Virus record (IMG/VR): IMGVR_UViG_3300005264_000029
Span: 1 to 64,000 of that record
Source of the DNA: a virus
Taxonomy: Duplodnaviria; Heunggongvirae; Uroviricota; Caudoviricetes
Length of the DNA stretch: 64,000 nucleotides
Reading direction: 5' to 3' (one strand)
The notes below the pieces were generated by a model, which ran no database searches, was not told where the DNA came from, and saw only the letters and a list, made by a program, of their open reading frames with translations. Positions 34,162 through 59,939 of this stretch are shown piece after piece (position 1 is the first letter of the stretch; each line of letters begins with the position of its first letter). A program made the position numbers and the translations under genes.

Positions 34162-34163
34162 AA

Positions 34164-34409
34164 ATGGAATATTTGAAAACTAAAGATAATTTAAATTTAA
34201 TAGGAAAGAGAGCAAGAATAAAAAACAATGTTTTAGGATATTGTAGTTTTTTATATAATTGTGAAGGAATTATAAAAAATGTTAATGATAAAATTTATCT
34301 CGAATTTAATAAAATTGCATATAGAGATGAAACAGACAAAATAAATAAATCTCCTTTTGGTATGAATGGGGTTTATATTTGTTATGGAGTTATAGAGGTT
34401 TTAAATTAA
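34164..34409 (+). CDS. hypothetical protein (81 aa)
   Basis: ORF track; ends ...IEVLN*. Confidence 0.4.
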   Translation: MEYLKTKDNLNLIGKRARIKNNVLGYCSFLYNCEGIIKNVNDKIYLEFNKIAYRDETDKINKSPFGMNGVYICYGVIEVLN

Positions 34410-34410
34410 A

Positions 34411-34650
34411 ATGAGTCAATATAAAAAAGATTTAATAAAAGAAATGAAAAGTTTTAATATTGAAATTAATAAAAAAGGTATTATGAGCAAAGCACATATA
34501 TTATTAATATTAAATACTATTGATTCAATAAACGATTTAAATACTTTATATATTATAGGTCATAGCTTTTTTGAACAATTAGTATTTTTAAAAATTGATT
34601 CAAGAGATTATTTAAAAGTTTTACAAAGTAGATACAATATTAAAAAATGA
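34411..34650 (+). CDS. hypothetical protein (79 aa)
   Basis: ORF track. Confidence 0.4.
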   Translation: MSQYKKDLIKEMKSFNIEINKKGIMSKAHILLILNTIDSINDLNTLYIIGHSFFEQLVFLKIDSRDYLKVLQSRYNIKK

Positions 34651-34859
34651 AACAGAAAACAGAAATTAAAATAAAAACTAAAAGAGAAAATAAAGACTTT
34701 TCAAATAAGGATATAAAAGAAATAAGAAAAGAAATAAGAAAGAGCGTTAATAATTCACAGACTACCGAAGAAGATTTAAATTTAAAGCTTAATGAAATTG
34801 ATAATGTTTTAAAGAACAAGAAGAAAACACATAATAAATATTATATGAGAGAATTATAA
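34647..34859 (+). CDS. hypothetical basic protein (70 aa)
   Basis: ORF track. Confidence 0.4.
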   Translation: MKQKTEIKIKTKRENKDFSNKDIKEIRKEIRKSVNNSQTTEEDLNLKLNEIDNVLKNKKKTHNKYYMREL

Positions 34860-34912
34860 AACCTATTGGTTTTATATATCGACTAAATAAAATGAAAGGA
34901 GAATTATAAAAA

Positions 34913-35149
34913 ATGAATGAGGAACAAAGCGAAGAATTAATAAAAGTTTTAATTGATGTAAAAGAAGAATTAAAAAATATTGTAAAGGTCTTAAAACCTA
35001 AGCAAGAAATAAAAACCGAAATAGTTAAAAAACATTTATTATCTATGCAAGAGCAAAGACTTATAAGATTTAAAAATTATGTTACTTCAAATAATTTTTA
35101 TAATACATTAACAGAAAAACAAAAAGAAGAGTTATTAAATTTAAAATGA
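34913..35149 (+). CDS. hypothetical protein (78 aa)
   Basis: ORF track. Confidence 0.4.
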   Translation: MNEEQSEELIKVLIDVKEELKNIVKVLKPKQEIKTEIVKKHLLSMQEQRLIRFKNYVTSNNFYNTLTEKQKEELLNLK

Positions 35150-35418
35150 TGAAACAATATAAATATAAAATACAATGGTTAATTGATGTTAATAAGGACT
35201 ATAAATTTAATAATGAAATTAAACAATTATTAAATATTATAGGAGTAAGAAGTTTAGATAAAATTGTTTTAAGAGATAATGATTATAAAATTATTGATAC
35301 ATATAATAGTTTTATTTGTTTTCCTTATGGCTTAGCAGAAAAAGAAACTTTAAAATATATTAAAAAACAAGTTAAGAAAAATAATAAAATTGTTTATGTT
35401 GATTTTGTGAGGACTTAA
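35146..35418 (+). CDS. hypothetical protein (90 aa)
   Basis: ORF track. Confidence 0.4.
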   Translation: MMKQYKYKIQWLIDVNKDYKFNNEIKQLLNIIGVRSLDKIVLRDNDYKIIDTYNSFICFPYGLAEKETLKYIKKQVKKNNKIVYVDFVRT

Positions 35419-35422
35419 AAAA

Positions 35423-35593
35423 ATGAGTTGTAAATATAAATTAAAATCTAATAAACATAATTTAAATTGTTTATCTTTATTTGAAGTTGTAGAATATATA
35501 AAACTTTATGATAAGGATAATACTATAAATAAAATTGAAATAACAAAAGACACAATAAACAAAGAACAAATAAAACAATACTATAATATTTAA
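35423..35593 (+). CDS. hypothetical protein (56 aa)
   Basis: ATG-to-stop frame. Confidence 0.3.
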   Translation: MSCKYKLKSNKHNLNCLSLFEVVEYIKLYDKDNTINKIEITKDTINKEQIKQYYNI

Positions 35594-35767
35594 ACTTATT
35601 ATTACTTTTATATATTGTTTATTAAAGTCTTATTAGCTTTGATAAACTCATTTTTTAAAAGTTTAAGTATTAGTACAATTTTAAAATAAAGGTCTTAAAT
35701 AAACCTTTATATAATTCTATTAAATAAAACAAATTAGATATATAATAAAAAATATTTTTATACAGAT

Positions 35768-35935
35768 CATGCCTAGATTGAAAGTATGCCTAGATTTTTA
35801 AACTTACTTAGATGCCTAGAGTGAAATAATATTCACTACTTTAATATATTATATTGTTCTTAAAATAATTAAAAAATTAATGAAATTATATTATAATTTA
35901 AATTTAAATCAAGTGACATAAGTCTAGGCATCTAC
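35768..35935. promoter_or_regulatory. third TGCCTAGA motif cluster (4 copies)
   Basis: CATGCCTAGATTG...TATGCCTAGATTT...GATGCCTAGAGTG...GTCTAGGCATC. Confidence 0.45.
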
Positions 35936-36094
35936 TTTAAAGTTGTGTATAGAGTGTTTTAATACTTGTTAGTATCTTATATTAAATATTAGAAGAGATA
36001 ATAAAAAAGTAATGTTATGACACCCTAAAAATTAAAATACTCTATACACTCATATATTTAATTATATAAAGTGTGTGTAAAATACACCACCTTA

Positions 36095-43992: not shown

Positions 43993-44232
43993 TTATTTAA
44001 TTTTTGTAAAATAGATGTTAAAATCAAAAGGTTTTTTCTTTGTAATCACAAGTGTATTATTAGGACCATTTAGAATCATTACATTATCAGTGTATCGATT
44101 TAAATTGTTTATGATTCTAGTAATATACGTTTCATTAATAGTCTTTTTGTCAAAGACTATTTGATTTTGTACTTTTAAATTACTGAACTTATTATATACA
44201 TCGAATTTTTGTGTTATTATTTTTATAGCCAT
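43993..44232 (-). CDS. hypothetical protein (79 aa)
   Basis: ORF track. Confidence 0.4.
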   Translation of the reverse strand: MAIKIITQKFDVYNKFSNLKVQNQIVFDKKTINETYITRIINNLNRYTDNVMILNGPNNTLVITKKKPFDFNIYFTKIK

Positions 44233-44234
44233 AT

Positions 44235-44528
44235 TTATTTTTTGAATGATATCTTATATAGTATTGCTGCCATTTCTAATACAAGTACTGAAACTAATGT
44301 ATATCTAAGTATTGGATCTACTTCATCTATAAATACTGATGCGAAAAACAATGTTGTCGTAAATGACAAATTCAAAGATTTTGTACCCATATAAAGCATT
44401 GTTTTAAATGCGAAAAATATCAATGTGATAAACCAGCCTTCAAACGATCCATTAAACATTATTGTGGCTGCACTAAAAATACTCCCATTAATTAATTCAT
44501 TCCATCCTGTTACGTTACCTATTACCAT
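44235..44528 (-). CDS. membrane protein (97 aa)
   Basis: ORF track; hydrophobic. Confidence 0.45.
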   Translation of the reverse strand: MVIGNVTGWNELINGSIFSAATIMFNGSFEGWFITLIFFAFKTMLYMGTKSLNLSFTTTLFFASVFIDEVDPILRYTLVSVLVLEMAAILYKISFKK

Positions 44529-44563
44529 TTTATTTTTAATTATACCCTAAAGGGTATAATATC

Positions 44564-44983
44564 TTAGCCCTCCTTATTTAGTTCTTTACCAGTGAACAAT
44601 GCAAATAGACTTAAACTATACATTATAGATATTAACCCATTTAAATACATTTCAAATGCTTGTGCTTCTGATGGTAGTATTCCAAGTATTATCTTTGGCG
44701 CAGCATATAAATAATCTGTCATAAAATCCATTGCATCAACTATAAATCCAAGTCCTAATAATCCTAATAAATTATCAGCCCAATTAGTTTCTGTTTGAAC
44801 AGGAACTTGATCAAACACTGTTGTATTAGTATTTTGCGAATCATAAATATCCATTTTTGCAAATTGTTCCTCATCAAATGATATTTGTTGTCCTACATAA
44901 TCCATCTCAAGTGCGTTGATTGTTATTCCTGATGCTATATTTATCATCAAAGTATATATTACTAATTTCCAAGCTAAATTCAT
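44564..44983 (-). CDS. membrane protein (139 aa), translationally coupled to giant gene
   Basis: start overlaps stop of 44980..50232 by ATGA. Confidence 0.5.
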   Translation of the reverse strand: MNLAWKLVIYTLMINIASGITINALEMDYVGQQISFDEEQFAKMDIYDSQNTNTTVFDQVPVQTETNWADNLLGLLGLGFIVDAMDFMTDYLYAAPKIILGILPSEAQAFEMYLNGLISIMYSLSLFALFTGKELNKEG

Positions 44984-47900
44984 TGTTTTTCACCCTCTCT
45001 TAACATACTTAGTATCGCAAGCAAAATTGCTGCAGATATTGCTACCCATGATAATGCGAACCATCCAAAGTATACCATCATTGCTGCAACAACGGATAAT
45101 ACCAATGATCCAGCAGTTGCAGATTTTGCTGTAAGTGTTAATGCCAAGAACCCTAAAAAGATTGTGATAATCCAATTCATGTCCATATTGAAGTTAACTA
45201 ACCCTAAACTTATTTCTCCATTTTCTCTCATTGAATCTCTATCAGAAACTATTCCATAATCTGTTATACCTTCAACCAATACATCAAGAGTTCTATTAAT
45301 ATATTCTGCAGGTGTCAAATAAACTAATTCAACACTACTTTGTCCAACCACTGTATTAGTATATACTAACTCACCATGTGGTCCATCTAATCTTACTTCC
45401 ATCTTAACCTCTTGAGTTGTACCTGAAATATCTTCCCACTTACCATACACAGTACCATTTATTTGATCTGAATATACAGACACTTTATCAGATATTACAG
45501 TTTGAGAAACTGAGAATGCAAGATCAAACAATGCTAAAGTTTCTACAACTGATTGTGTTGCTGTATAAAAACCTATACTTCTAATTGGTTGATTAGCAGA
45601 TTCAACTTCTAATATATACTGTTCGTTTTGAATTAAAAATGCAGTAACCTTTCCAGCTGCATCTGTTTTATCCCATGTAATTTCTTGAGATGTACCTTCA
45701 ATATTTCTCTTAAACGATAATGACAAATCGTCATAATCATTTAATAAATCAAACATATTAAACACTGCTGTAACTGCACTTGTTGTAAGTACATCAATTA
45801 AATATACTTTTTGATTAAGTACATCTTCATCAACTCTTACAGTTCTAAAGTAACTTGAATCTGAATATTGTAAATCAAATTTAAGTTTCTCCACTTCACA
45901 ATTAATCGGTACTACGAAATTGTCTTCAGTAATTGTTATTTGTGATACAGATGAATCTTCACAAATTGTTTGAAGTGTAATTATTATAGCACCTGATATA
46001 TTAAATGCTCCGAAATCTTTTTCATCAAGTAATGAAAAATTAAATACTGGCCCAAGTGTAATAGGTAATGTTTCAAACACTGTCGAATTTGATTTATTAA
46101 ACAATGTATATTTTGAACCATATTGTGATTTGGACGATCCAAAGTTATAATTACCAGGATTGATATATGTTAAATAATATGAAGTGTTTCCTGTACTTCC
46201 AATGTTACCTATTGTAGATTCATTAATAGTTACATAATCAATATCATTACCTGTCATTGCTGATGAATATGTAAAGTTAATTCTATACAAATCAACATTT
46301 ACGGTATTGTTATCTTCTACATTATTACTAACACTATCATAAATTGAAATATCTACTGTAGCATTACCTAAATTACTAAATATAAAACTTGCATTATAAC
46401 AACTTCCTAGATTCTGTACTACTTGTCCGTCTTCTGTAATCTGAGCGTTACATGTAACAGGAGTTAAATCTGTAATTGATATATAATCTGTTAAGTTAAG
46501 CGTTCTATCATTTAAATTAATAGTATCTGGAAATGATATATTTAATGTAGGTGCTGTATTATCTACATAAAATACATGGTTATTCTTATTGCTCGAAGTT
46601 CCATCTAAATACCAATTAGTATAAATACCCTCACTGAAATTCTGTACATAAAATCTAGGAGTAACTAATTCATGTCTTTGGTTATCGATTACATCAAGTA
46701 CTTCAGTATTTGAATGTTTATTAAAATCGTAATTAGCAACTAAGTTATCAGTTGAAACTTTGAAATATTCTTCATTATACAAATCAGTAACTTCTTGTTG
46801 CGATAAAGATTTATTATAGATTCTAATTTCATCAAGGTCTCCATTATATAACGCGTCACCCATTGAAATTGTAAAATCATTATCAGTTAGTACACTTCCA
46901 GATGCTATACTATTTATAGTAGTTACTAATTCGTTATTTACATACAAATGCATAGCTGTATCATTTCTAATAGCTACTATGTGATTCCATGTATTTAAAT
47001 TTGTAGCAGGACCTGAGACACTATGTTGTGTACCACTATACCAATCGTAAAATTCTGCTCTATTGTTTGCACCACATCTTATTAGCATCTTATTACTTGT
47101 ACTTCTCTGTTTAATAAGAGTGTCTATATTACATGCTGATTCAGGATTATACCATAATGAAATAGCATATTCATTAGTTAAAGATAAATCTAACCCTTCT
47201 GCACTACCAACACTAATATAATCATCTACACCATCGAAATGTACTCCTCTATCTTCTCTTTCAAATATAGGTTCCCCTGTAATAAATTCAAGATCTGGGT
47301 TTTCTAAATCAACTGTTGTTCCCCTGTAATCATATAGGTTCTCATAATCTAAAGTACCAGTTTCATATAATTCTAAAACTTCTGTTGCATTAAGTGCTTG
47401 ATTAAGTATTACTATATCATCAAGTTTACCCTGATACCAATAATTGATCTTATCATAATATGTTCCTATAACTGTATGTGAATCAGCTTCACTAATTTCA
47501 CCAGAGCAATATCCTGTATGGGCCGAATCTAAAACACCGTCAACATAAATATATACATTTGTATCTGATCTTGTAATAGTTACAGTATGTTCATTATTAT
47601 CATTATATAATCCAGTTGAATATTTTGATAATGCTGTACCATCTGAATTACAAAATGCTCTAATTTTACCATTTTGTATACCAATCATATTTCTATCAGT
47701 ATATCCTTGACTTCCACCGTATTTATCCATTACTACAGTATCAGCATTTTGTGTTGTAATAAATTTAAATCCTATTGTAAAATCATTTCCTGGCATTGGA
47801 ATATCGAGATCTACATAATCATCAACTCCATCGAATCCAAGAACCTCTTTTGGCTCGTAATTATTAATAGCTTCTCCAAGAGTCATAATGTTATCCCCTT

Positions 47901-50232
47901 CAAAGTTAAACTCGTATCCATTAGCTAGTTCATCATATTCAATATGTTTGTCATTATATAGATCTGTAATTTCTGTTTGATTTAAAGCATAATCTAGGAT
48001 TACTACATTATCCATTTGACCTTTAAAATACGATGTTGATCCAATAGTTGATCCTAATTTATTAAAATATCTAGGTTCTCCTAAAGTCGCATCACCAGAA
48101 TAATCTAAAACACCATTTAAATAATATTTTACTGCTATATCATCTAATGTATAACATAAATGATTCCAATCCCCATCAAACACTGTTGAAGAAGATATTG
48201 CGAAATCTACGGCATTTAATGAATCATATAATATCAAATACATTTTATTGTTTGCTAATTGAATTCTAGTTTTTGGTGTAACAGTTCCTTCAATTAACAT
48301 ATTACTCGGTGATACTTCTGTACTTACCCATACACATGCCGTAAAATCATCTACTGCCATTGGGTCAAATAGAACATAATCATCTACACCATCAAACACT
48401 AATGACTTACCTAATACTCCAGATACTCCTTTACCTAATGTTGATGTACCTGCTCCTTCATCCATCTTGAATTCATATCCTTGCACATGATCTATAGCTG
48501 TATAATCTATTTCTCCTGTACTATATAGACTTGAAACCTCAGCAGGTGTAAGGGCGTGATCTAATATTATTACATCATCGATTTGTCCATTAAACCAAGA
48601 TTCAGGTCCACTTCTATATTTACCAATTAAGTATGAATGTACTGCATCTGGGTCGTATGTACCATCAGTTGTAGCACCAGCACCATCAGCTGCACCGTTA
48701 ATATAAGTTTTCATTGAATTATCGGTTGCATCATAAGTTGCAACTACATGTGTCCATCCTGATGCCGCAAGAATTGTACTTGTACTAGATGCTGTTACGG
48801 TTGTTCCTACAACTGTATATGTCAACTTGAATGTATTATCAGAAGACATATATATACCTGGATGAAGGAAATCTTTTGTAACAATAGCCATTGTAGTTCC
48901 GTCCACATCTTTATTTACCCATGCGGCTAATGTAAATGATTTATCAGCTTGTTCTTCATAAATACCTGTGTCAATATAATCTGCTGTACCATCGAAGTCT
49001 ATACCTCTAGTCGCATCCCATAGAGGACCATTAACTAAAGTACCTATTGTATCAGTTGCATATTGCTCGGCTCCACCATTAATAGTTGCAGGAAGATCTT
49101 CTGTACCACTTACAATATAGTTATCATCAACAACTGTTACATTATCATATCCCTCAAAAGAATATGATGCTTTCAGATTTGCCGATCTTACAGGTTTAGC
49201 TGAATGCATTTCTTTAAATATTTCATCTTGAGTAAGTGCAGCATCCCAAACTCTAAATTCATCAAATGATCCTTCAATAGTTCCATAAGAATTTGTTTGT
49301 ACTGGTCTATCAAAATTTAACCATAATGCTTGTGATGTTGGTGGAGATATTTGATATAATACACCAACTTCTGTTTGTTCTACACCGTTAATATATAGAG
49401 TTTTAACACCTGCAGTAGATACTGCAGCTATATGCACTTGTTCTCCTTTATCAAAATATCCAAGTTTTCCATTATACACACCATTATAACTTTGATATGC
49501 TACCTTCCATTGATCACCATAATCATTAATCAGTAATGCATTCCTATTATTTCCACCATTACCATTAACCCAAACATTTCCATATGCAGATCCAGGTCCT
49601 AAATTTTCTACATCAATCCATATAGATGTTGTATATGTTCCGGCCTCTGTAACAAACTCAAGTACATCATTTTCTATAGCTACATAATCATCCATTCCAT
49701 CAAATTCTAAATATTTCCCGAATTTACCACCAACAGCCTTACCTGTTGTTTCTACTCCTAGATCCTCGAAGTCGAAATCATATCCCTTAACGAACTTTTC
49801 AGTATTATATGTACTAGTTTCATAAAGTGTTCTGATCTCGTTTGCATCAAGTGCATGATCTAGGATTAATACGTCATCAATTTGTCCTTCCCAATAACTA
49901 TCTGCTGTAGTATCTCTTCTACCTAAAACATAACTTCTATCTGTACTTGCAATACTACCATTAGCATCTATATTATTTGATACTGAAAAACCATTATCAC
50001 CATTGTAATATCCTTTTAATTTTTCACCATCATACACCATTGTAATAAATAACCATTCATCATTAGAAAATAAATTGGAATCTAATTGAATAATAAATGA
50101 CCCTTCTGTTGTAGTTATATATCCTCTAATATCTCCACCACTTGATCCTCTTTGATGAAATACTATATCTCTATTATCATCATAAATATATCCATTACCA
50201 TTAATATCTCCCATCGATAACCACATAGACAA
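44980..50232 (-). CDS. giant secreted/anchored protein of LamG/ConA-like lectin domains with C-terminal TM anchor (1750 aa as called; first domain truncated)
   Basis: at least 8 'FDGVDDYV ... IDDVxILDxALxxxEIxxLY' units; called start is TTG, and the LamG motif 'VDDYVEIDN' continues upstream to 50292. Confidence 0.7.
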   Translation of the reverse strand: MSMWLSMGDINGNGYIYDDNRDIVFHQRGSSGGDIRGYITTTEGSFIIQLDSNLFSNDEWLFITMVYDGEKLKGYYNGDNGFSVSNNIDANGSIASTDRSYVLGRRDTTADSYWEGQIDDVLILDHALDANEIRTLYETSTYNTEKFVKGYDFDFEDLGVETTGKAVGGKFGKYLEFDGMDDYVAIENDVLEFVTEAGTYTTSIWIDVENLGPGSAYGNVWVNGNGGNNRNALLINDYGDQWKVAYQSYNGVYNGKLGYFDKGEQVHIAAVSTAGVKTLYINGVEQTEVGVLYQISPPTSQALWLNFDRPVQTNSYGTIEGSFDEFRVWDAALTQDEIFKEMHSAKPVRSANLKASYSFEGYDNVTVVDDNYIVSGTEDLPATINGGAEQYATDTIGTLVNGPLWDATRGIDFDGTADYIDTGIYEEQADKSFTLAAWVNKDVDGTTMAIVTKDFLHPGIYMSSDNTFKLTYTVVGTTVTASSTSTILAASGWTHVVATYDATDNSMKTYINGAADGAGATTDGTYDPDAVHSYLIGKYRSGPESWFNGQIDDVIILDHALTPAEVSSLYSTGEIDYTAIDHVQGYEFKMDEGAGTSTLGKGVSGVLGKSLVFDGVDDYVLFDPMAVDDFTACVWVSTEVSPSNMLIEGTVTPKTRIQLANNKMYLILYDSLNAVDFAISSSTVFDGDWNHLCYTLDDIAVKYYLNGVLDYSGDATLGEPRYFNKLGSTIGSTSYFKGQMDNVVILDYALNQTEITDLYNDKHIEYDELANGYEFNFEGDNIMTLGEAINNYEPKEVLGFDGVDDYVDLDIPMPGNDFTIGFKFITTQNADTVVMDKYGGSQGYTDRNMIGIQNGKIRAFCNSDGTALSKYSTGLYNDNNEHTVTITRSDTNVYIYVDGVLDSAHTGYCSGEISEADSHTVIGTYYDKINYWYQGKLDDIVILNQALNATEVLELYETGTLDYENLYDYRGTTVDLENPDLEFITGEPIFEREDRGVHFDGVDDYISVGSAEGLDLSLTNEYAISLWYNPESACNIDTLIKQRSTSNKMLIRCGANNRAEFYDWYSGTQHSVSGPATNLNTWNHIVAIRNDTAMHLYVNNELVTTINSIASGSVLTDNDFTISMGDALYNGDLDEIRIYNKSLSQQEVTDLYNEEYFKVSTDNLVANYDFNKHSNTEVLDVIDNQRHELVTPRFYVQNFSEGIYTNWYLDGTSSNKNNHVFYVDNTAPTLNISFPDTINLNDRTLNLTDYISITDLTPVTCNAQITEDGQVVQNLGSCYNASFIFSNLGNATVDISIYDSVSNNVEDNNTVNVDLYRINFTYSSAMTGNDIDYVTINESTIGNIGSTGNTSYYLTYINPGNYNFGSSKSQYGSKYTLFNKSNSTVFETLPITLGPVFNFSLLDEKDFGAFNISGAIIITLQTICEDSSVSQITITEDNFVVPINCEVEKLKFDLQYSDSSYFRTVRVDEDVLNQKVYLIDVLTTSAVTAVFNMFDLLNDYDDLSLSFKRNIEGTSQEITWDKTDAAGKVTAFLIQNEQYILEVESANQPIRSIGFYTATQSVVETLALFDLAFSVSQTVISDKVSVYSDQINGTVYGKWEDISGTTQEVKMEVRLDGPHGELVYTNTVVGQSSVELVYLTPAEYINRTLDVLVEGITDYGIVSDRDSMRENGEISLGLVNFNMDMNWIITIFLGFLALTLTAKSATAGSLVLSVVAAMMVYFGWFALSWVAISAAILLAILSMLREGEKQ

Positions 50233-50288
50233 TGTAAAAGTATCACTTCCAGAAATTTGATGTAAATTATCAATTTCTACATAATCAT

Positions 50289-53200
50289 CTACTCATAGTT
50301 TTCATAGTTTACTTTTCCTGTATTATATAGTTCAGTAATTTCTGCTTGTGTTAAAGCTACATCTAAGATCTTTACATCATCGATTTCTCCATCAAAAAAT
50401 TCACTAGTTCCTCCATAACTTCCAAAATATATTTCGTCAGGAATATTAGGTATATTAATATTTGCAGAAGTTCTTTGATTTTGTAAAACACCATCTAAAT
50501 ATGTTTTAAATCCATTAACAGTGTTTTTTTCCCAAGTTAATGTTATCATATGCCAATTATCATCATAATAATTTCCAAAAGATACTCCACCACCTACTCC
50601 ACCATCGAAAGATAATATTGCTTCATCATTGTATGGTAATACGATATAATCACCAGATTGTATTCTAAATGCACTTCTAGTTGTAGCGTCATCTGTTTTT
50701 ATAAATAAATTAATTGTTAATTTAGATCCAGATAAATCTATATTTTTATTATATTGAACATAATCATCAACACCATCAAAACTTACTCCCCTATCTGTAC
50801 TCCAAGTTACTCCATTTTCTAGACTTCCTTGAACTGCTGAATGAACACCTACTCCATTTGTTAGAGTTCCTGTAATATCTTGATCTCTTGTTATAGATCC
50901 TAGATCATAATTAAAACCATATAATTCATTTCCGGCATCTGCTGTACCTGTAATTAAATATACTTTATCATTATATTCAAATTGTGATGGTGTATTATAT
51001 AATCCTACATCTCCAATAGAATTAATTATTTCTAAATCCATTTGCCATGCTGAATCTTTCCATACATAACCATATACAACACCGTTATATTCACCAGCAA
51101 TTAAATATCTTTCTCCATTAACCTCAAATACATCAGGTGAAGCTCGCTGTCCAATATCTCCAAGTCCAGAAATATATGATGAATCTGATACCCAAGCATT
51201 TGTTACCCATTTAAAAGATTCAAATGTTCCATCTTCCATTCCAGATATTAATATCCAATCAGTACCATCATGATAAACTTCAGGAGAAGAATAAATTAAT
51301 CCTCTAGAATCTCCTGGTTCATCAATTATTCCGTTAGTTATTGCTGTGTTTACCGACCACGCAGATCCAGTCCATTCATATCCTCTATTCTGATCATTCA
51401 TACTTCCCATGATTAAATACCATGTACTATCCTTATAGAATACTGTAGATTGTAAATAATCAATTCCTTCAGTAATTCCAGCCTCTATTGGAGCGTTAGG
51501 TTTCCAAGATACACCATTCCATTCATAACCAGTACATTGCCCAGATGAAATACATTGAATATTGTAAAGATTACCGTCCATTGTAAATACTTCAGGTTGT
51601 ACTCCTGAACTTGATCCTGGTAATCCATTAAGTAAATTTGTATCAGCAAACCATTTCTGATCTGTTTCTAAATTATATCCGTCGAATGTTCCGTCTTGAT
51701 CACCAGTTATAGTGTACCATGTATTTAACATATAAAATGTTGAAGCTGTAGAATAAGTGCCAACATCAGAAAGTCCACTAATCACTTCGGCATTTACACT
51801 CCATGAAGATCCTCCCCATATATACCCATCGAAATCTCCTACAGAATTTCCAATAACTAAATATAAATTCCCATCTTTTTCAAATGTTTTTGGTTTAGAT
51901 CGGCTGCCTACATCTGGAAGTCCACTAATTATACCTGCATCAGATGACCATGAAGATCCTCCCCATATATACCCATTGAAAACACCGTCATGTTCACCAG
52001 ATATTAAATACCAATTATCATTCAGATAAAATATAGTAGGTGCAGAATGCGATCCTACATCTGGAAGTCCACTAATTATACCTGCATCAGATGACCATGA
52101 GGATCCTCCCCATATATACCCATCGAAATCTCCATCGAAATTTCCATTAATTAAATATAAATTTCCATCTTTTTCAAATGTTGTAGGTGAAATGTAAGAT
52201 CCAGAAAGTCCACTAATTATACCTGCATCAGATGACCATGATGATCCTCCCCATATATGACCATTTGCTGAACTTCCAGATATTAAATACCATTCATTAT
52301 CAACTTCGAAAACTACTAAATCAGCATATGATCCAACATCTCCTAAACCTGAAATGATTTGTGTATTTGACAACCATGGGAAATCGTTACCTGTAACAGT
52401 ATCCATTATACTTCCATCATTAGTTGTTTTACCATTTACACTTCCATATAATTCGGCTTGTGTACCTGCAACTTGATTCATATCATAAGCAGTTATACCT
52501 TCTGTTTCTTCGAACGAAAATGATGAAACTAGGTTTTCATTCCTTCTTGGAATAGATGACTCCATTTCAGCCTTAATTTCTTCTTGTGATAAGGCAGCAT
52601 CCCAAATTCTTACTTCATCAAGTGACCCGTTGAAATGTTGTATATCTAATGGGTGCGCTCCTAATGTATCAACTAAAGAATAATCAAGTGCGTGATTGGC
52701 TTCATTTTGTTGATCTATTAATATTCCATCTATATATAACTGTTGAACAGATGTAGCTCCAGTTTCCCAATAATTTCCACAGTAATAATGCCAATCTTTA
52801 TATTCATCATACGTGATTGGTGATTGAATTGTTCGTGCACCTGAATTATCAAACCGCCATACTATATCTGTATATGTTGTAAAATCTCTAAATCCTAAAG
52901 TATGTGTTTCACCTACAACCATATTAAATGATGTTACTGTACCTAACATATCAGAATTGTGTTTAGCCCATGTACAATATGTTAATGCCGTTGCTGTAGC
53001 GTCTGGAGTCATCATATCCATTGATATTTTATCGTCTACACCATCGAATTCTAATGCTTTCCCATATTTACCTGTAGCTGTTTCACCTACTGTAATTGTA
53101 CCTGTCCCTTCTGAGAAATCGAAGAAATATCCTTCCGTTCTATCTATTTCACTTAATGCAGATCTACCATTTTTATATAATTCTTGTACTTCAGTATTTG

Positions 53201-56200
53201 TTAGAGCTCTATCTAGAATTAATACATCATCGATTTGCCCGAATATAAATCTATTAGTATATGCTCTTCCTATACCCTCAATTATAAAATTATCTTGTAA
53301 AACAATATCTACATCAGTTAATACTCCATTAGTATATGTAGATATTAACTGATGTGTTAAATTATAAGTTTCAAAATTTAATGATATATGTCTTAAATCT
53401 GTTCTTAATCCAGAAAGCTCTAATAGATGATTTGTACCTGTTGATCCTAGTTCTAAAGTTATATCTTCTCCTCCAGAAATAATAAAGTTTCTAGTTAGCC
53501 CTATTTCACCCATATATCCTTGATTAATTAATGAATCTGTTTGCACTATAAAATTTATAGAATATTCATCTCCTGCATTAAATGATATAGTTGGTACACT
53601 TACATAATCATCTACTCCATCAAACTCCAGACCACGTGAAGTCCATGTAGGTCCATTAATTAAGCTCCCAACTATATTGTCATTCCTTGTTACGCCACCA
53701 ATCATATTACCATCAGAGAAAGCGTAGTTTTCATATACACCATCATTTACATCTGTGGACTTAAATAATGCTTGCAGATCAAAAACTTTAGAATTAGAAT
53801 CCTTATAGGTTGTACATCCCACACATAATTGTTCATTTCTATCATGAATTACAGAATTCTCTAATTCCTCAAATGAAGCATGATATACAAGATTAGTTGT
53901 ATCAAAATATTCATTATTATATAATTGTTCAATATATTTACTAGGATTACCACATGTTATAGTTTCTATATGTTGCATTTGAGCACTTTCAATTGTCCAA
54001 CTTCCTGAATATTGATATTTTTGATGTCCAAACCCCATACCAGAATCAGTATAACTAACATGTTTTTCATAACCATTTTCTACACAATACTGATCTGCTG
54101 TAGCAGTATCTCTATATAAAGGTAGTCCAGCATGAGTTGGATTATTAATTATAACATCATCAGCTGTATTCATTAAAGATGTATTATAAATTCTTACATC
54201 ATCAAGAGAACCGTTATATCTAGTTGAACTATATCCAATACCTAAATATTGTAAACTTATATTTTTATTAGATGTTCCAGTATGATAAATATACTCACCA
54301 TTTTTATAGAAAGTTATTAAAGCGCTATCATAAACATAACATATATGTTGATAAACATTATAATCTAAAAAACCTACTGGAGAAGCAATAGAAGTTCCAT
54401 CTTTAAATTCCATAAAATATACATTAGTTCCAATATTAAATCCAAGAAAATTATCATTAGATGGAGAAGTATCTCCAATTAGTGATATTCTATTTGTTGA
54501 TGAAGCTTGAATAGAAGAAGGATTAAACCAATTACACACTGCAAACTCTGTTAAGTCCCCTGTATCTGTAAATGATACATAATCATCAACACCATCGAAG
54601 TACATAGCACTTTCTCCAATAATTCCCGAATTTAGATGATTTAGATCTTCAGTTGTTGTCCCACCTGTTTCTTCAAATGAATATGATGCAACTAATCCTT
54701 CTGATTTTATAGGTTTATTAGAATTCATCTCTTTCTGGATTTCTTCAGATGTTAATGTAATATCCCAAATTCTTACTTCATCAATTTGACCATCATAATA
54801 ATTAGATGCACTAGCTACATATAAAGCTCCTAACTCAAAATCTGCCATACTAGTAAGTAATGTATATGTAAAACTTCCAGCATTATAACCATTATTAAAT
54901 ATCTCAGCATTACCATTATCGTATCTTACACATCTATAATTCCATTCATTTAAATTATCTGTTACTGCATAACTTAATGTTTCTCCGTTACCAAATACCC
55001 ATTCAAATCTGTTTGCTGTAGTACCGGCCTGTAAATAAATCCTACTTCCAGAATTATAATGTCCAAATACTTTATCAAATGATGTTGTTGTGGATTCTGA
55101 ATTATGCCATAAGCATATGGTACCTTCTGTAGATGATAGCGCCGTACCACTAATACTTACATAATCATCTACACCATCGAATTCTAATGCTTTTCCGTAT
55201 TTACCATTAATTGTACTTGAAGTTGTTGTAGTATCATCAAGGATATTCTCGAAATTGAATTCATATCCTTCTAGGTGTTCATGTAATCCATATGAAGTAG
55301 ATCCAGTTTCATATAATTCAAGTACTTCCTCTGCTGATAATCTTGTATTTAATATAGTTATATCATCTATTTTACCACCCATTGGATGTCCACTTCCTGC
55401 TGCATAATCAAGACCATATACTTTATCACTAGTAGTTGCTTGATCTCCTCTAATTCTAAAATTTCCTTGATCAAAAAATAAATTCCATTTTGTATTAACT
55501 GTACCTTGAGAAATAACCCAATCATATTCACCTACGCCTATAGCATCTGGTTTAACCCAAAAACACACTGATAAATCTCCTTGTTTTAAATTAGGATTAG
55601 GAACTAGCACATAATCATCACTACCATCAAAGCTCATAGAATGTCCTTTTAGTCCGTTATGGTATTCTCCAGTTATAGTATTATCTAAAAAATGTTCAAA
55701 AACCATAGGTACTGAGTTAGATCCCACACTAGGTAATCCTGAAATTATTCCTCCATCAGATATCCATTGAGATCCATTCCAATTCCAACCATTGAAAGTT
55801 CCACCTATAAGTCCAGATATTAAATAAAGTTCATCATCAATATAGAATATTGTAGGTGAAGAATAATCTCCCACATCTGTTAATCCTGTAACAATAGAAG
55901 AATTAGAAACCCATGTAGATTCTACCCATTTATAACCATCGAATTGTCCATCATTACTTCCAGCTATTAAATAAAACTCTCCATCTTTTTCAAATACTTC
56001 TGAATCAAATGAAACAAAACTTGTTACAAGTCCGTTCATAATTGCCGTATCGGCAACCCATTGAGATCCGTTCCATTTATTTCCTGTAGCTGTTCCAGAA
56101 CCACTTCCACCACTAATTAAATACATACTACCATTCATCTTAAAAACATCAGGTTTAGACCATGTTCCTACTTCACCTATACCAATTACTATATCAGAAT

Positions 56201-57821
56201 CTGTTACCCATGTAACACCATTCCATTGATATCCATTATAACCAGCACCAGATTTTCCAGAAATTAAATAATAACTTCCATCATAAGTAAATGTCGTTGG
56301 TGCTGAATAATCACCTAAATCAGTTAATCCTGAAAATATATCTGTATCATATGTCCATGAACTTCCAGTATTTTCATACCCATAAAATTCACCATTTGCT
56401 GCACCTGATATTAAATATGTAGATGATTCCTTATCTAGATCAAACTCATACGCATTTACATAATCTATTTGATTATAATTAATTTGTTCAGATTCATATA
56501 CTTCCCTTACTTGTGTAGCTGTAAGTGCAATATCTAAGATCTTTACATCATCGATTGATTGATGTGCATAATTAAGATTTTGAAAACTTGATATTAATTT
56601 ATATAATCCATCATCTGTTGTTAAGGTACCTAAAGCATTATTTACACTTGTAGCAACAAGTTCTCCATCAATATATATTTTAGAATTTAATCCATCATAT
56701 GTGGCAGTTAATTCATAATATTTATCTATATTAGGAATCCAAGCATGTGATAAAGACAATACTGTTGCTCCATTACCTATCTGTAAAACTAATTCATTAT
56801 TTGTGGGATAATAATAAAATTGAGTAGCATAATTATATCCCGCTGTACCTCTTTCTTGAATTATTGCAGAATTTACTATAGGAATAGATAAATATTTAAT
56901 ATCTGCACTAATTGTAAATTCAGATATCCCATCAAATAATTGTTTATTATAAGTAGCATAATCATCTACTCCGTCAAATGCTAACCCTCTTTCATCATCA
57001 AGTATTACTCCATTAGTTAGAGTTCCTGTTACATCATTAGGCATAGTGATTCCACCATTAAGAGTACCTGTTAATTCTGAATGTCTTGTTACTCCACCAG
57101 AAGTTGTTCCATCATTAAATGTTTTACCTACTATATTTCCATCATTTCTTACTGGATATGTTTCTTCATCACCAGTAAATAAATATTTTAGAAAAGATGA
57201 CTCGTAATCATAATTTGATACAAACGTAGATGTTAAAGAATTACTAAAATATTGAATTTCATCAACTATTTCTATTGGTTGATATTCTAAAGTATTAATT
57301 TCATAGGAATGTGCAATATTTCCCCCTATAATATTATTTTCTAATTTAAGTCTAATACCTTGAACATTTTTATTTAAAGTATATGTTCCTAAATCTACTG
57401 CACCTCCACCATTAGAATTAGTAATATCACTAAGTGTAGCTTCAAAAGACCATGTACTACCATCATATGTTTCTAAAGATCCCCTTCTTTGTCTACCAGT
57501 ACCGGATGCACCATTAATAATAGTATATCTATATGTTATTGTTGATATATTAGTTTCTTTAAATATTTTTTGAACATATACATAAGTAGAACCAGTAGAA
57601 CCAGTAGAAGCTGATGCATATGTTCCATCATTATGATCGAATGTATTTTCAACATTTGACACTGTTAAAGATCCTCCAGACCCAGATGTTCCAAAAGCTG
57701 ATACATCCTCTCCTACAAAAAATAAATCTAAATCTACCTCTGATGTTGTAGCACTCGCCACACTAACTAATGTTAGACTCATTAAAAAAAATATTAGAAA
57801 TTTTGAAAAAATCTTATTCAT
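50289..57821 (-). CDS. giant secreted protein (2510 aa): signal peptide, multiple LamG/ConA-like domains, about 20 repeats of a roughly 50-aa 'YLISG...GYxWxGSxWxxDxxIxxGLxDVGxxSxPTxF' unit
   Basis: signal peptide 'MNKIFSKFLIFFLMSLTLVSVASA'; near-identical repeats 'GYIWGGSSWSSDAGIISGLPDVGS' x3; LamG boxes throughout. Confidence 0.75.
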   Translation of the reverse strand: MNKIFSKFLIFFLMSLTLVSVASATTSEVDLDLFFVGEDVSAFGTSGSGGSLTVSNVENTFDHNDGTYASASTGSTGSTYVYVQKIFKETNISTITYRYTIINGASGTGRQRRGSLETYDGSTWSFEATLSDITNSNGGGAVDLGTYTLNKNVQGIRLKLENNIIGGNIAHSYEINTLEYQPIEIVDEIQYFSNSLTSTFVSNYDYESSFLKYLFTGDEETYPVRNDGNIVGKTFNDGTTSGGVTRHSELTGTLNGGITMPNDVTGTLTNGVILDDERGLAFDGVDDYATYNKQLFDGISEFTISADIKYLSIPIVNSAIIQERGTAGYNYATQFYYYPTNNELVLQIGNGATVLSLSHAWIPNIDKYYELTATYDGLNSKIYIDGELVATSVNNALGTLTTDDGLYKLISSFQNLNYAHQSIDDVKILDIALTATQVREVYESEQINYNQIDYVNAYEFDLDKESSTYLISGAANGEFYGYENTGSSWTYDTDIFSGLTDLGDYSAPTTFTYDGSYYLISGKSGAGYNGYQWNGVTWVTDSDIVIGIGEVGTWSKPDVFKMNGSMYLISGGSGSGTATGNKWNGSQWVADTAIMNGLVTSFVSFDSEVFEKDGEFYLIAGSNDGQFDGYKWVESTWVSNSSIVTGLTDVGDYSSPTIFYIDDELYLISGLIGGTFNGWNWNGSQWISDGGIISGLPSVGSNSVPMVFEHFLDNTITGEYHNGLKGHSMSFDGSDDYVLVPNPNLKQGDLSVCFWVKPDAIGVGEYDWVISQGTVNTKWNLFFDQGNFRIRGDQATTSDKVYGLDYAAGSGHPMGGKIDDITILNTRLSAEEVLELYETGSTSYGLHEHLEGYEFNFENILDDTTTTSSTINGKYGKALEFDGVDDYVSISGTALSSTEGTICLWHNSESTTTSFDKVFGHYNSGSRIYLQAGTTANRFEWVFGNGETLSYAVTDNLNEWNYRCVRYDNGNAEIFNNGYNAGSFTYTLLTSMADFELGALYVASASNYYDGQIDEVRIWDITLTSEEIQKEMNSNKPIKSEGLVASYSFEETGGTTTEDLNHLNSGIIGESAMYFDGVDDYVSFTDTGDLTEFAVCNWFNPSSIQASSTNRISLIGDTSPSNDNFLGFNIGTNVYFMEFKDGTSIASPVGFLDYNVYQHICYVYDSALITFYKNGEYIYHTGTSNKNISLQYLGIGYSSTRYNGSLDDVRIYNTSLMNTADDVIINNPTHAGLPLYRDTATADQYCVENGYEKHVSYTDSGMGFGHQKYQYSGSWTIESAQMQHIETITCGNPSKYIEQLYNNEYFDTTNLVYHASFEELENSVIHDRNEQLCVGCTTYKDSNSKVFDLQALFKSTDVNDGVYENYAFSDGNMIGGVTRNDNIVGSLINGPTWTSRGLEFDGVDDYVSVPTISFNAGDEYSINFIVQTDSLINQGYMGEIGLTRNFIISGGEDITLELGSTGTNHLLELSGLRTDLRHISLNFETYNLTHQLISTYTNGVLTDVDIVLQDNFIIEGIGRAYTNRFIFGQIDDVLILDRALTNTEVQELYKNGRSALSEIDRTEGYFFDFSEGTGTITVGETATGKYGKALEFDGVDDKISMDMMTPDATATALTYCTWAKHNSDMLGTVTSFNMVVGETHTLGFRDFTTYTDIVWRFDNSGARTIQSPITYDEYKDWHYYCGNYWETGATSVQQLYIDGILIDQQNEANHALDYSLVDTLGAHPLDIQHFNGSLDEVRIWDAALSQEEIKAEMESSIPRRNENLVSSFSFEETEGITAYDMNQVAGTQAELYGSVNGKTTNDGSIMDTVTGNDFPWLSNTQIISGLGDVGSYADLVVFEVDNEWYLISGSSANGHIWGGSSWSSDAGIISGLSGSYISPTTFEKDGNLYLINGNFDGDFDGYIWGGSSWSSDAGIISGLPDVGSHSAPTIFYLNDNWYLISGEHDGVFNGYIWGGSSWSSDAGIISGLPDVGSRSKPKTFEKDGNLYLVIGNSVGDFDGYIWGGSSWSVNAEVISGLSDVGTYSTASTFYMLNTWYTITGDQDGTFDGYNLETDQKWFADTNLLNGLPGSSSGVQPEVFTMDGNLYNIQCISSGQCTGYEWNGVSWKPNAPIEAGITEGIDYLQSTVFYKDSTWYLIMGSMNDQNRGYEWTGSAWSVNTAITNGIIDEPGDSRGLIYSSPEVYHDGTDWILISGMEDGTFESFKWVTNAWVSDSSYISGLGDIGQRASPDVFEVNGERYLIAGEYNGVVYGYVWKDSAWQMDLEIINSIGDVGLYNTPSQFEYNDKVYLITGTADAGNELYGFNYDLGSITRDQDITGTLTNGVGVHSAVQGSLENGVTWSTDRGVSFDGVDDYVQYNKNIDLSGSKLTINLFIKTDDATTRSAFRIQSGDYIVLPYNDEAILSFDGGVGGGVSFGNYYDDNWHMITLTWEKNTVNGFKTYLDGVLQNQRTSANINIPNIPDEIYFGSYGGTSEFFDGEIDDVKILDVALTQAEITELYNTGKVNYENYE

Positions 57822-57840
57822 ATACTATTTAGAATTTTGT

Positions 57841-57866
57841 AGGTTTATATATGTATTTAGAAGAAT
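57841..57866 (-). promoter_or_regulatory. class-B promoter variant upstream of giant gene
   Basis: +strand 'AGGTTTATATATGTATTTAGAAG' = minus-strand TATATAAACCT TATA about 20 nt before start. Confidence 0.4.
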
Positions 57867-57872
57867 ATGTAT

Positions 57873-58364
57873 TTAGAGATTCCGAAGAATTCTATCAGAC
57901 ATTGATAATGGTTGTTGATTAGTATTTTTCTTACATTTCTTTTTTGACTTTGTAGTTGCTTGTGTTGCTTTTTGACCAAGTGCCCTAGAGACATCAAAGT
58001 TCATCCCACCGAATGAAGATTTTGCCCCTTGTCCCATTTGTTTACCTGCAGAATGACCTTGAGTGCCAACTTTTTTAGCCATATTACCTAATTTTTTCAT
58101 ACCGCCTTTAAACTTATCACCTGTTGTTCTTGTATCTCTAAGTTGATCTCTTTGTTTATCATATTTAGCAGATTCTTGAGATACCATTTCCTTTCTTCTT
58201 TCATCGAGAATTATCTTTCTATCTTCAAGGAAATCTGATCTTGCCTGTTTTCTTGCTTCTTCTCTATAAACTCTATCCCTTTCAGCAATATCTCTTTCAA
58301 ATTCTCTTTCTTCTTGTTTCCTATTTTGTCTATCGTGATAAGCTTTTTTTATTCCCTCAAACAT
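57873..58364 (-). CDS. charged R/E/K-rich coiled-coil protein (163 aa)
   Basis: ORF track. Confidence 0.5.
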   Translation of the reverse strand: MFEGIKKAYHDRQNRKQEEREFERDIAERDRVYREEARKQARSDFLEDRKIILDERRKEMVSQESAKYDKQRDQLRDTRTTGDKFKGGMKKLGNMAKKVGTQGHSAGKQMGQGAKSSFGGMNFDVSRALGQKATQATTKSKKKCKKNTNQQPLSMSDRILRNL

Positions 58365-58367
58365 TTT

Positions 58368-59906
58368 TTATAAGAACCTCATAACATCCATTTTCTTCTT
58401 AGGAACTCCTTTAGGTGCTGCAAATTTTCCACCTAATTTAGACATATCAAATCCTCCTGTTTTCTTTCCTCTACCAAGTAATCGCATATCAAATCCTTTA
58501 CTTTGAACTTGACCAGCTCCTGTGAATTGATGAATACTATCTACTCCTCTATTACCTTGACCAGCTCCTGTGAATTGATGAATACTATCTACTCCTCTAT
58601 TACCTTGAGAACCTCCTGTGAATTGCATGATTGACTCAGGTCCACTTCTTTGTTGCGACTGACCTCCTGTGAATTGTAATAATCTATCAGCTCCGCCAGA
58701 TTGTCCACCACCAAGTGCAGACCTTACATCTCCACCACGTCCTCCTGTGAATTGTAATATAGATGCAGCTCCTGCAGTTTGTCCTGCACCTCCTGTAAAA
58801 TCACTAACACTAGATTGAAATCCTAAAGATCCACCAGATTGACTACCGCCCATTGGAGCTTGTCCAGGACTTGCGCCTATCTGAGAGTATGAAACTGGAG
58901 CTTTTCCTTTAGTCATAGCTTCTAATGTCATTAATCTTTTAAATCCTGCTTTAGAACCACCAATCGCTAATAATTTCTTTTCATGAATAACAACTTTTGC
59001 TTTAGTTCTTCCAGCATGTTTCATTTTAATTCTATTACCATCAGCATCTAACACATATTCACCTTGTTTATTTTTCTTATAATAAACCCTTTCAGGTAAA
59101 CCCGGTAAATTATCTATAGAAATTCCTGAACCTTCATTTACAGCCATTGCACCTACTGAACTTACTGCTCCAGTAGTTTGATTTCCACCAAGTGCATTTC
59201 GTACACCATTTGAAGTTCCTCCACTTCCCTTAAGTAATGCTTTTAATCCTTCTTGTCCACTTCCACCAAGTGCTACTTTTTGTTGTACACTTCCTTGTCT
59301 ATACCCTGCAAGAGAATTAAGTACATCATTTTTTCTAATTCCTGTCATATCACCCATAGACGATAATACTCCTGATACTTTCGATTCTTGTTTTGTCTGT
59401 TCTTGTTTAGCTTGTGGTTCAGACTTAGGTGGTTCTTCTATTTTATTTTTTTGTATTTCTATATTATCAGCATCTGTTTTCATTCTAGCAAAGAAATCAT
59501 TTTCTGGTGGATTTGGAGCAGATGATGGAGCTACGTTATTTTGATATTGCATTACTTCTGCATCATTTTTCATTTTATTGAAAAAATTATCAGGTGAATT
59601 AACCCTTTCACCGGCAGATTTCATCTTTTCACTAAAACTATTATCGTTTTTTAATTTGTCAGCTGCAATATCCATTGCATTATTTCCAGATTTCAATTCC
59701 GGTTCTTGAGGAACATCTACATATTGTTCTCCTCTAGAATTCACTTGTGGTGTATTCATCATATTAGTATTACTTGACATACCAATTCCTGGATTACCTG
59801 TACCTGGAGTATTTAATACTGATCTATTAGGTTCATTTAACATAGTTTCCCCACCATATAATATACTAGGTTCTTCTTTAGTTTTAGAAATACTTTCTCT
59901 ATTCAT
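58368..59906 (-). CDS. Gly/Ser/Gln-rich protein with C-terminal tandem 16-aa 'VDSIHQFTGAGQGNRG / LQFTGG' repeats (512 aa)
   Basis: 48-bp nucleotide tandem repeat at 58513-58640 encodes the repeats. Confidence 0.55.
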   Translation of the reverse strand: MNRESISKTKEEPSILYGGETMLNEPNRSVLNTPGTGNPGIGMSSNTNMMNTPQVNSRGEQYVDVPQEPELKSGNNAMDIAADKLKNDNSFSEKMKSAGERVNSPDNFFNKMKNDAEVMQYQNNVAPSSAPNPPENDFFARMKTDADNIEIQKNKIEEPPKSEPQAKQEQTKQESKVSGVLSSMGDMTGIRKNDVLNSLAGYRQGSVQQKVALGGSGQEGLKALLKGSGGTSNGVRNALGGNQTTGAVSSVGAMAVNEGSGISIDNLPGLPERVYYKKNKQGEYVLDADGNRIKMKHAGRTKAKVVIHEKKLLAIGGSKAGFKRLMTLEAMTKGKAPVSYSQIGASPGQAPMGGSQSGGSLGFQSSVSDFTGGAGQTAGAASILQFTGGRGGDVRSALGGGQSGGADRLLQFTGGQSQQRSGPESIMQFTGGSQGNRGVDSIHQFTGAGQGNRGVDSIHQFTGAGQVQSKGFDMRLLGRGKKTGGFDMSKLGGKFAAPKGVPKKKMDVMRFL

Positions 59907-59939
59907 AATTATATCTTGATGACTAAAGTTTATATATGT

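Follow-up and report, generated by a model that had tools for sequence, protein, structure and literature searches.

Two giant open reading frames (ORFs) rich in LamG repeats follow one another on the minus strand of a 64,000-nucleotide (nt) stretch of DNA (positions 1 to 64,000 of IMG/VR record IMGVR_UViG_3300005264_000029; hereafter, the window), and they raise the question whether they are two native genes or the halves of one gene whose reading frame has been broken and, if broken, whether by a lesion, by a regulated switch or by an error in the sequence. An initial annotation had read them as one gene interrupted by a +1 frameshift and a stop. Consistently with its central claim, we found that ORF1 and ORF2 are well supported as the two halves of a single gene, and we lean towards a real, unprogrammed, frame-breaking lesion as the cause of the interruption. 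The elements at the junction are the following.

57821 to 50289, minus strand: ORF1, with an ATG start and 2510 amino acids (aa), the N-terminal part of the broken gene.
50232 to 44980, minus strand: ORF2 as called, with a TTG start and 1750 aa.
50289 to 50295, minus strand: the frame break TGAGTAG, in which TGA (50295-50293) closes the ORF2 frame, GTA occupies 50292-50290 and TAG occupies 50291-50289.
50233 to 50292, minus strand: 20 sense codons upstream of the TTG, VDDYVEIDNLHQISGSDTFT, which hold the start-box and first strands of a LamG unit.
50293 to 50310, minus strand: a perfect 9-nt tandem duplication, AAACTATGA in two copies, which encodes NYE-NYE and abuts the break.
50301 to 50804, minus strand: the last complete LamG unit of ORF1 (aa 2340-2507; profile positions 1-179), ending ...ELYNTGKVNYE.
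49789 to 50292, minus strand: the junction LamG unit, the first in the ORF2 frame, without the 11 N-terminal profile columns (xxxxxLxFDG).

On the coding strand the junction reads ...GGA AAA GTA AAC TAT GAA AAC TAT GAG TAG ATG ATT ATG TAG AAA TTG..., so that ORF1 ends in ...LYNTGKVNYENYE (also given as ...ELYNTGKVNYENYE) followed by the TAG at 50291-50289, while the frame whose first open codon is the GTA at 50292 reads VDDYVEIDNLHQISGSDTFTLSMWLSMG... (VDDYVEID...) on into ORF2. The residues and coordinates first reported for this site (the end of ORF1, the TAG, and the frame from 50292 running into ORF2) were thus right, and the direction of the shift was not: codon starts fall at 2 mod 3 in ORF1 and at 0 mod 3 in ORF2, which places ORF2 in the -1 (= +2) frame, whereas the true +1 frame reads ACT ATG AGT AGA TGA (...T M S R *). 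A +1 slip on TAT GAG TAG ATG, which had been suggested as a model to examine, cannot join the two ORFs, as it meets TGA after two codons (AGT AGA TGA), and read-through of the TAG yields M-I-M-stop. The two frames share exactly one nucleotide of overlap, and restoring one base joins them into a single ORF of 4,280 aa, slightly above the initial estimate of about 4270 aa. The 9-nt duplication (TRF: period 9, 2.0 copies, 100%) keeps the frame and hence is not the lesion itself; the gene contains a tandem repeat of comparable score roughly every 2 kb, and the duplication, a possible trace of slippage, was treated as no evidence.

To place the break within the protein, we built a hidden Markov model (HMM) from 11 other LamG units of the protein and tested the junction against it. 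The model spans the last ORF1 unit fully (1-179), ending at ...KVNYE three residues before the stop, and picks up again in the other frame, at its very first codon, from profile position 12 ('vDDY'). Of the LamG match, 12.7 bits come from the 20 codons upstream of the TTG, which argues that the continuity of the domain is not due to chance and bears out the earlier view that this domain starts upstream of the called TTG. With Pfam (cut-off 27.6 bits), Laminin_G_3 (PF13385) matched ORF1 in 7 stretches (E=8.6e-90) and the ORF2 frame, extended to 50292, in 6 stretches (E=2.6e-102). The TTG itself cuts the LamG unit at about profile position 32 and falls in a predicted beta-strand (residues 19-27) of an AlphaFold model of the junction unit, a model of low confidence overall (mean predicted local distance difference test (pLDDT) 60.8, with residues 1-14 below 50) and uninformative beyond this placement.

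The junction unit is otherwise normal, scoring 68.9 bits against 55-110 for the other units in a leave-one-out comparison in which those units start at profile positions 2-7; it alone, in the 12-unit alignment, lacks the 11 N-terminal columns, 'FDG' included. Moreover, LY and FDG lie 39-43 aa apart in six other linkers between units (four of them measured, two counted by hand), whereas at the junction 10 2/3 codons separate LY from V and FDG is absent altogether, so the shortened linker noticed initially is real; the shortfall against the regular architecture is 94-106 nt and is necessarily of the form 3n+1. The tail of ORF1, KVNYEN, matches the conserved start of linkers elsewhere in the protein (TLDYEN, EIDYTA, HIEYDE), and the junction unit with its successor forms an 'A-type unit / GK(Y/F)GK.LEFDG / B-type unit' pair that is found twice also inside ORF1.

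The topology of the product is divided between the two ORFs. The features concerned lie at the outer ends of the gene.

57750 to 57821, minus strand: a signal-peptide-like N-terminus, MNKIFSKFLIFFLMSLTLVSVASA, the sole N-terminal hydrophobic segment in the 4280-aa joined product.
57822 to 57851, minus strand: a TATA-like element (tatataaacc...), which precedes the ATG of ORF1 by about 25-30 nt.
45181 to 46740, minus strand: the C-terminal module, all-beta, of tandem Ig/FnIII-like sandwiches (44983-46740 including the helices; the last 586 aa of ORF2).
44986 to 45180, minus strand: three predicted membrane helices forming the C-terminal anchor (module residues 521-538, 542-557 and 565-585).

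The joined product has hydrophobic segments in only two places, residues 3-27 (the signal peptide) and 4217-4277 (the membrane helices), and the 12-mer hydropathy maximum at the N-terminus is 2.72 for ORF1 vs 0.47 for ORF2. ORF1 has, therefore, an export signal and no membrane anchor, and ORF2 an anchor and no export signal. Neither does the beginning of ORF2 look like that of a gene: ORF2 lacks a TATA-like element such as those ahead of ORF1 and several neighbouring genes, and its TTG start is unique among the 30 ORFs checked.

We then compared this architecture with that of homologous proteins, using the last 586 aa of ORF2 as query in a full HMMER scan of 1.84 billion cluster representatives. 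The scan returned 336 cluster representatives as homologues of the module, 186 of them at E <= 1e-10 and the best with 43% identity, and in every case the match sat at the extreme C-terminus; the proteins reach 3,710 aa and their heads vary greatly. Of the 150 best homologues, 146 had a C-terminal membrane stretch, and a signal-peptide-like start was present in 68 of the 81 of at least 1000 aa (84%) and in 26 of the 30 of at least 2000 aa. At least one protein without such a start (P0046) can be aligned by eye with a signal-bearing homologue and begins about 25 residues into it, so the share of signal-bearing proteins is probably larger than counted. When metagenome contigs were scanned with a profile of the module, 30 loci emerged, and in all nine whose contig includes the start of the gene a signal peptide opens the ORF directly after the upstream stop. 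The signal peptide that marks this family is lacking from ORF2 alone and present once ORF1 and ORF2 are joined.

A one-gene origin thus follows from the continuity of the LamG domain, from a signal peptide found only in ORF1 and a stalk and anchor found only in ORF2, from the architecture of the family and from the lack of a start context for ORF2. The claim of one gene rather than two native genes was in this way upheld by domain continuity, by the split topology and by the 150 homologues together with nine complete metagenomic loci, and a small deletion or frameshift, possibly a sequencing error, was likewise supported as the nature of the break. The comparison with homologous loci that had been called for succeeded in one respect, distant members of the family being single ORFs, and failed in the other, as no orthologue spans the junction.

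As to how the gene came to be interrupted, we propose that the frame was broken at 50292-50295 by an unprogrammed lesion that put the downstream part into the -1 frame, and this is the explanation to which we give rather more credence than to the others taken together. The lesion would most likely be a real deletion of about 94-106 nt (3n+1), reaching from after the KVNYEN motif to before GTA GAT GAT TAT, which would have taken most of a linker of about 40 aa together with the strand that opens the following LamG unit and carries 'FDG'; such a single deletion of about 100 nt would explain both the short linker and the change of frame. Alternatively, an older in-frame shortening of the linker may have been followed by the deletion of one nucleotide. 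Under either course, the promoter of ORF1 would now yield a secreted, unanchored LamG protein of 2,510 aa, the 1,770 downstream codons would be effectively silent, having no signal peptide, promoter or credible start, and the gene as it stands would be a pseudogene or a truncated allele.

Several observations weigh against this account. No close orthologue spanning the junction was found by exact-protein look-up or by word-indexed searches with the ORF2 C-terminus and the ORF1 N-terminus, and nothing close came from single-protein scans of genome, metagenome and viral contigs or from BLAST against phage DNA and proteins; for the best relative (L031, 43% identity) the contig, 3.4 kb long, breaks off 450 nt upstream of the module and does not reach the junction. 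The N-terminal 280 aa of ORF1 (56982-57821, minus strand), which comprise the signal peptide and the stretch ahead of the first LamG unit, had no homologue in a word-indexed search of 5.8 billion proteins and matched neither Pfam nor NCBIfam. At 4,280 aa, the joined product would be longer than any of the 150 best homologues, whose maximum is 3,710 aa, which leaves room for a deletion that fused two tandem paralogues, and a GGAAGTGA motif (7/8 match to GGAGGTGA) stands 10 nt before the TTG, within Gly-Ser-Asp codons, which makes weak re-initiation of ORF2 conceivable. Once a G is restored the sequence reads TAT GGA GTA (...NYGVDDY), and its Gly falls where one is expected in the (FD)GVDDY box; yet when ENY[G] was scored as a degenerate EFDG box (position-weight matrix, 1-nt gap allowed), 57% of random positions scored equally, and this non-significant test does not tell a 1-nt from a deletion of about 100 nt. 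More generally, the sequence by itself does not distinguish a real lesion from an assembly or base-calling error.

The error is the alternative that deserves most attention, although we regard it as unlikely: the gene would be intact in the organism and the consensus would have lost one base (or gained two) at 50292-50295, for example the G of GGA from ...TAT GGA GTA GAT GAT TAT, giving ...NYENYGVDDYVEID... A single inserted G produces the uninterrupted 4,280-aa ORF and restores the Gly of the box, the topology and family arguments for one gene hold equally, and a comparable case exists in the same family, where the assembly of one locus (L030; Ga0102926_1036161, 1270-1300) has a 1-nt deletion in its 1.3-kb module (ATT AAG TAC vs the ATT GAA GTA CAT of its relatives) that splits the HMM match into two frames at profile position 212. 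With one break among the 30 metagenomic family loci, or about one per 30 kb of assembled family sequence, one break in a 12.8-kb gene is unremarkable, whether it is a lesion or an error. The site, however, is G/GG and offers no long homopolymer (the longest run in the region is 4), and the 12.8 kb of AT-rich coding sequence contain no other frame break, which argues against an indel-prone assembly; a deletion of about 100 nt cannot be a base-calling error, and one of 1 nt can. The repaired unit would, moreover, still be short by about 10 profile positions and about 30 linker residues, so that a second, in-frame deletion would be needed, and the likeness of ENYG to EFDG is the non-significant one given above. 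Misassembly by repeat collapse was considered as well and is unlikely, the LamG units being only 60-80% identical at the DNA level, with a longest exact match between the junction and another unit of about 17 nt (by hand). More improbable is the fusion of two tandem surface-protein genes, in which a multi-kb deletion would have joined their LamG arrays out of frame, the upstream gene losing its stalk and anchor and the downstream gene its signal peptide and first domains, so that a 4,280-aa protein would never have existed. The length of the joined product and the abruptness of the junction, which has neither linker nor FDG strand, are what such an event would leave, and genes of this kind do cluster, as one locus (L010) has a second LamG protein 4.7 kb downstream of the family member. 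Small deletions are, however, commoner than multi-kb ones, two C-terminal modules occur together in none of the 30 related loci nor in the window, and the A/B pair at the junction matches the pairs inside ORF1, leaving no visible seam in the array.

The readings under which the sequence is functional as it stands have far less to recommend them. Two native genes, a secreted LamG protein from ORF1 and a membrane protein from ORF2 begun at TTG 50232 or ATG 50226 by termination-reinitiation, would profit from the 57 nt that separate the ORF1 stop from the TTG on the same strand and from the GGAAGTGA motif ahead of it; this is nevertheless very improbable, since the start would split a LamG domain inside a beta-strand, the coding signal extends 20 codons upstream of it, the start would be the only TTG among the 30 ORFs, ORF2 would have no signal peptide though its homologues are exported ectodomains, and ORF1 would end without the anchor present in 146 of the 150 family members. 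Programmed recoding or switching, whether by -1 frameshifting, transcriptional slippage or phase variation, would set the ratio of a secreted 2,510-aa to an anchored 4,280-aa protein, and we find it extremely difficult to credit. Surface adhesins are typical targets of phase variation, and the one-nucleotide overlap of the frames means that a single -1 event after GAG would yield the full-length anchored protein, two long same-strand ORFs joinable by one shift beside a stop being also what programmed frameshift sites look like. The elements that define such sites are, however, absent here. Known -1 sites combine an X XXY YYZ heptamer with a downstream structure, as in Sulfolobus fucA and bacterial dnaX, and the +1 site of prfB is CUU UGA C with an upstream Shine-Dalgarno sequence; at this locus the shift needed is in the -1 direction, no slippery heptamer lies in the zero frame at the shift point (AAC TAT GAG TAG), and a prfB-like +1 slip is ruled out by the frame of ORF2 and by the TGA two codons on. 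The -1 frame is closed by TGA up to 50293, so that the sole possible shift comes after GAG (50294-50292), where both frames are open at a single codon boundary and the P-site tRNA-Glu must re-pair on UGA, and the protein made by such a shift would still be missing the first strand of the LamG unit. No stimulatory RNA structure was found downstream (50300-50180: minimum free energy -17.2 kcal/mol vs -19.6 on average for shuffled sequences, z = +0.87; 164 of the 200 shuffled sequences folded no worse than the native RNA). Neither did we find the substrates of slippage or inversion: the longest homopolymers within +-60 nt of the break are A4/T4, no A or T run of at least 7 that would allow transcriptional slippage lies at the break, the only tandem repeat there is the 9 nt x 2.0 one, none having a unit that is not a multiple of 3, and no inverted repeats flank 50290, weak ones (18-37 nt, 73-90% complementarity) being scattered over 44000-58500. 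The junction has no terminator-like site and no surplus of promoter-like ones. Neither programmed frameshifting nor phase variation is thus supported, and the suggestions of a phase-variable switch and of a programmed frameshift controlling the length of a fibre or adhesin, the latter also at odds with relatives that are single ORFs, did not survive these tests. Reassignment of stops fared no better: code 25, under which TGA would be Gly and would land at the FDG position in the ORF2 frame, was rejected, as TGA, TAA and TAG each terminate well-formed genes in the window, ORF2 included, and TAA closes the ORF2 frame 13 codons up, leaving it still separate from ORF1. It is hardly credible, finally, that the break is real and exploited, with the population, or the ribosome through a rare and unconventional -1 event at GAG-UAG, toggling between a shed 2,510-aa lectin and an anchored 4,280-aa adhesin; were it so, the junction would be a length and anchoring switch of a host-attachment protein in an episymbiotic archaeon.

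Returning to the interrupted gene, its joined product would consist of a signal peptide, 13 LamG/ConA-like domains with two beta-propeller-like blocks, an Ig/FnIII-like stalk and three C-terminal helices. ORF1 contributes the signal peptide, 7 LamG units and two blocks of repeats of about 49 aa, and ORF2 contributes 6 LamG units, the beta-sandwich stalk and the membrane helices.

50892 to 52454 and 55662 to 56414, minus strand: the blocks of repeats of about 49 aa (147 nt), with the pattern W.G..W..D..I..GL.DVG..S.P..F..DG..YLI.G.

These repeats look like the blades of a beta-propeller, and their only Pfam match was a sub-threshold one to the EPTP propeller. The copies at 51918, 52065 and 52206 share 95-97% identity over 60 nt, which suggests that these three were recently homogenised or duplicated. 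One LamG unit of ORF1 (55287-55631, minus strand; aa 731-845) carries an in-frame internal truncation that joins profile positions 4-65 to 139-178, so the array underwent at least one other deletion, in this case frame-keeping. The joined protein (44980-57821, minus strand) contains 31 N-x-S/T sequons vs 55.7 expected from its composition, unlike the homologues of the module, which are visibly sequon-rich; this depletion may reflect a lineage without N-glycosylation or selection against it.

The C-terminal module matched no Pfam or NCBIfam model. It measures about 420-540 aa in the family, and ORF2 scores 449.6 bits against the module HMM. In a structural model predicted from a 25-sequence alignment (mean pLDDT 71, residues 150-505 mostly 80-97) the module is all-beta and then three helices, that is, as modelled, a stalk of tandem beta-sandwiches ahead of the anchor; Foldseek against PDB gave only generic multi-domain Ig/FnIII/macroglobulin-like matches with low TM-scores (best 6fwv, E = 1.2e-9). 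From its architecture, the intact protein would be an anchored, lectin-like adhesin. ORF2 holds the full module of this uncharacterised family (L001-L031) at the extreme C-terminus, with 25-43% identity to its members, and differs from them in that they are single ORFs with a signal peptide, whereas here the signal lies on a separate upstream ORF in another frame.

The neighbourhood of the module is also partly kept. Two small membrane proteins of 139 and 97 aa lie downstream of ORF2 (44235-44983, minus strand), and their order is preserved in the best relative (L031, which is ENA ERZ3624305 NODE_4217; positions 2081-2792) with 44% and 49% identity, while at two other loci (L007 and L010) a protein of about 150 aa with a similar N-terminus comes after the family gene; these small proteins may be functional partners of the anchor. 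In L031, the frame of the homologous gene (45-458) is open for 135 codons upstream of the called ATG, without a signal peptide, until it reaches stops 45 nt from the contig end, and that gene may be 5'-disrupted or mis-called. The 570-aa and 512-aa upstream neighbours showed no homology by BLASTP to the like-sized neighbours in L007, and in L010 an integrase adjoins the family member. A viral origin of the module family was considered and set aside, no member of it being found in IMG/VR or INPHARED. The neighbouring proteins had no Pfam or PHROG hits, and the genomic context may be that of a cell or of a mobile element.

The window as a whole is very AT-rich (16-35% GC), with a segment at 30001-36000 that has 16-18% GC vs 23-35% elsewhere and carries small ORFs without family hits. 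No tRNA, rRNA or Rfam match was found in it; it encodes TatC, an SPFH protein, an ATP-dependent DNA ligase, TnpB, a XerA-like integrase and a PD-(D/E)XK nuclease, and many of its small ORFs could not be annotated. One group of these genes lies on the plus strand.

14082 to 15341, 19717 to 20661 and 28646 to 29434, plus strand: the TnpB / XerA-like recombinase / PD-(D/E)XK exonuclease region.

There, TnpB (RNA-guided endonuclease family, 172.6 bits), the XerA-like tyrosine recombinase and the PD-(D/E)XK exonuclease lie amid dozens of unannotatable plus-strand ORFs, and the region may be an integrated mobile element or provirus. In front of many genes of the window, 'tatataa' stands about 25-30 nt from the ATG and a Shine-Dalgarno sequence is missing, a leaderless arrangement of archaeal type (for example at 57822-57851 and 59907-59936), and operon-internal genes have GGAGG or GGTGA 6-10 nt upstream. 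The best NCBIfam matches for TatC and XerA were the archaeal models TatC-Arch and XerA_Arch, both below cut-off. Together with the leaderless TATA-like elements, these matches suggest, from sequence features, that the window comes from an archaeon, the taxon not being fixed by them.

Judged by analogy, the closest known kind of protein is that of the giant LamG/ConA-like proteins of DPANN archaea, in which large, secreted, organism-specific proteins of this type are expanded, often in genomic islands, and have been proposed to mediate attachment to the host (PMC5498576; PMC7443923). Like those of Nanohaloarchaeota and of the ARMAN-like Mia14, the joined protein is very large and organism-specific, combines a signal peptide with multiple LamG/ConA-like and beta-propeller-like modules and lies near integrase and transposase genes in an AT-rich, gene-dense region, whose promoters in this window look archaeal. 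It differs from them in being sequon-depleted (the DPANN proteins of PMC7443923, as the module homologues, are sequon-rich), in that its frame is broken and in that the archaeal origin of the window is putative. Likewise, Ca. Nanohaloarchaeum antarcticus has SPEARE proteins, cited in PMC7443923 as multi-domain attachment proteins of giant size, which are surface proteins of several thousand residues with partly lectin-like domains and a presumed role in attachment between cells; likened by that description, the protein studied here differs in having another stalk and anchor module and no detected protease or restriction-endonuclease domains. As a lesion, the break resembles ordinary frameshift pseudogenes and assembly indels such as that of L030, single breaks in conserved coding sequence with no recoding signals, from which it differs in coinciding with the loss of about 100 nt of linker and first strand, so that it may be a larger deletion.

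For annotation, the consequence is that the calls of ORF1 and ORF2 should be merged and flagged as one disrupted gene (a pseudogene or a possible indel), and that the TTG start at 50232 should not be believed. The locus opens no new mechanism; the lesion or error is an ordinary one, and the giant surface protein that it affects is of a known kind. Were it intact, this protein would rank with the largest members of a widespread, unnamed family that combines a signal peptide, a variable lectin-like head, an Ig/FnIII-like stalk and a three-helix anchor, a family found in uncultivated microbes of low GC content, whose probable role is attachment between cells. Should the lesion be real, the lineage would have lost the anchoring of this protein or would shed it, as is expected from the turnover of fast-evolving host-interaction genes.

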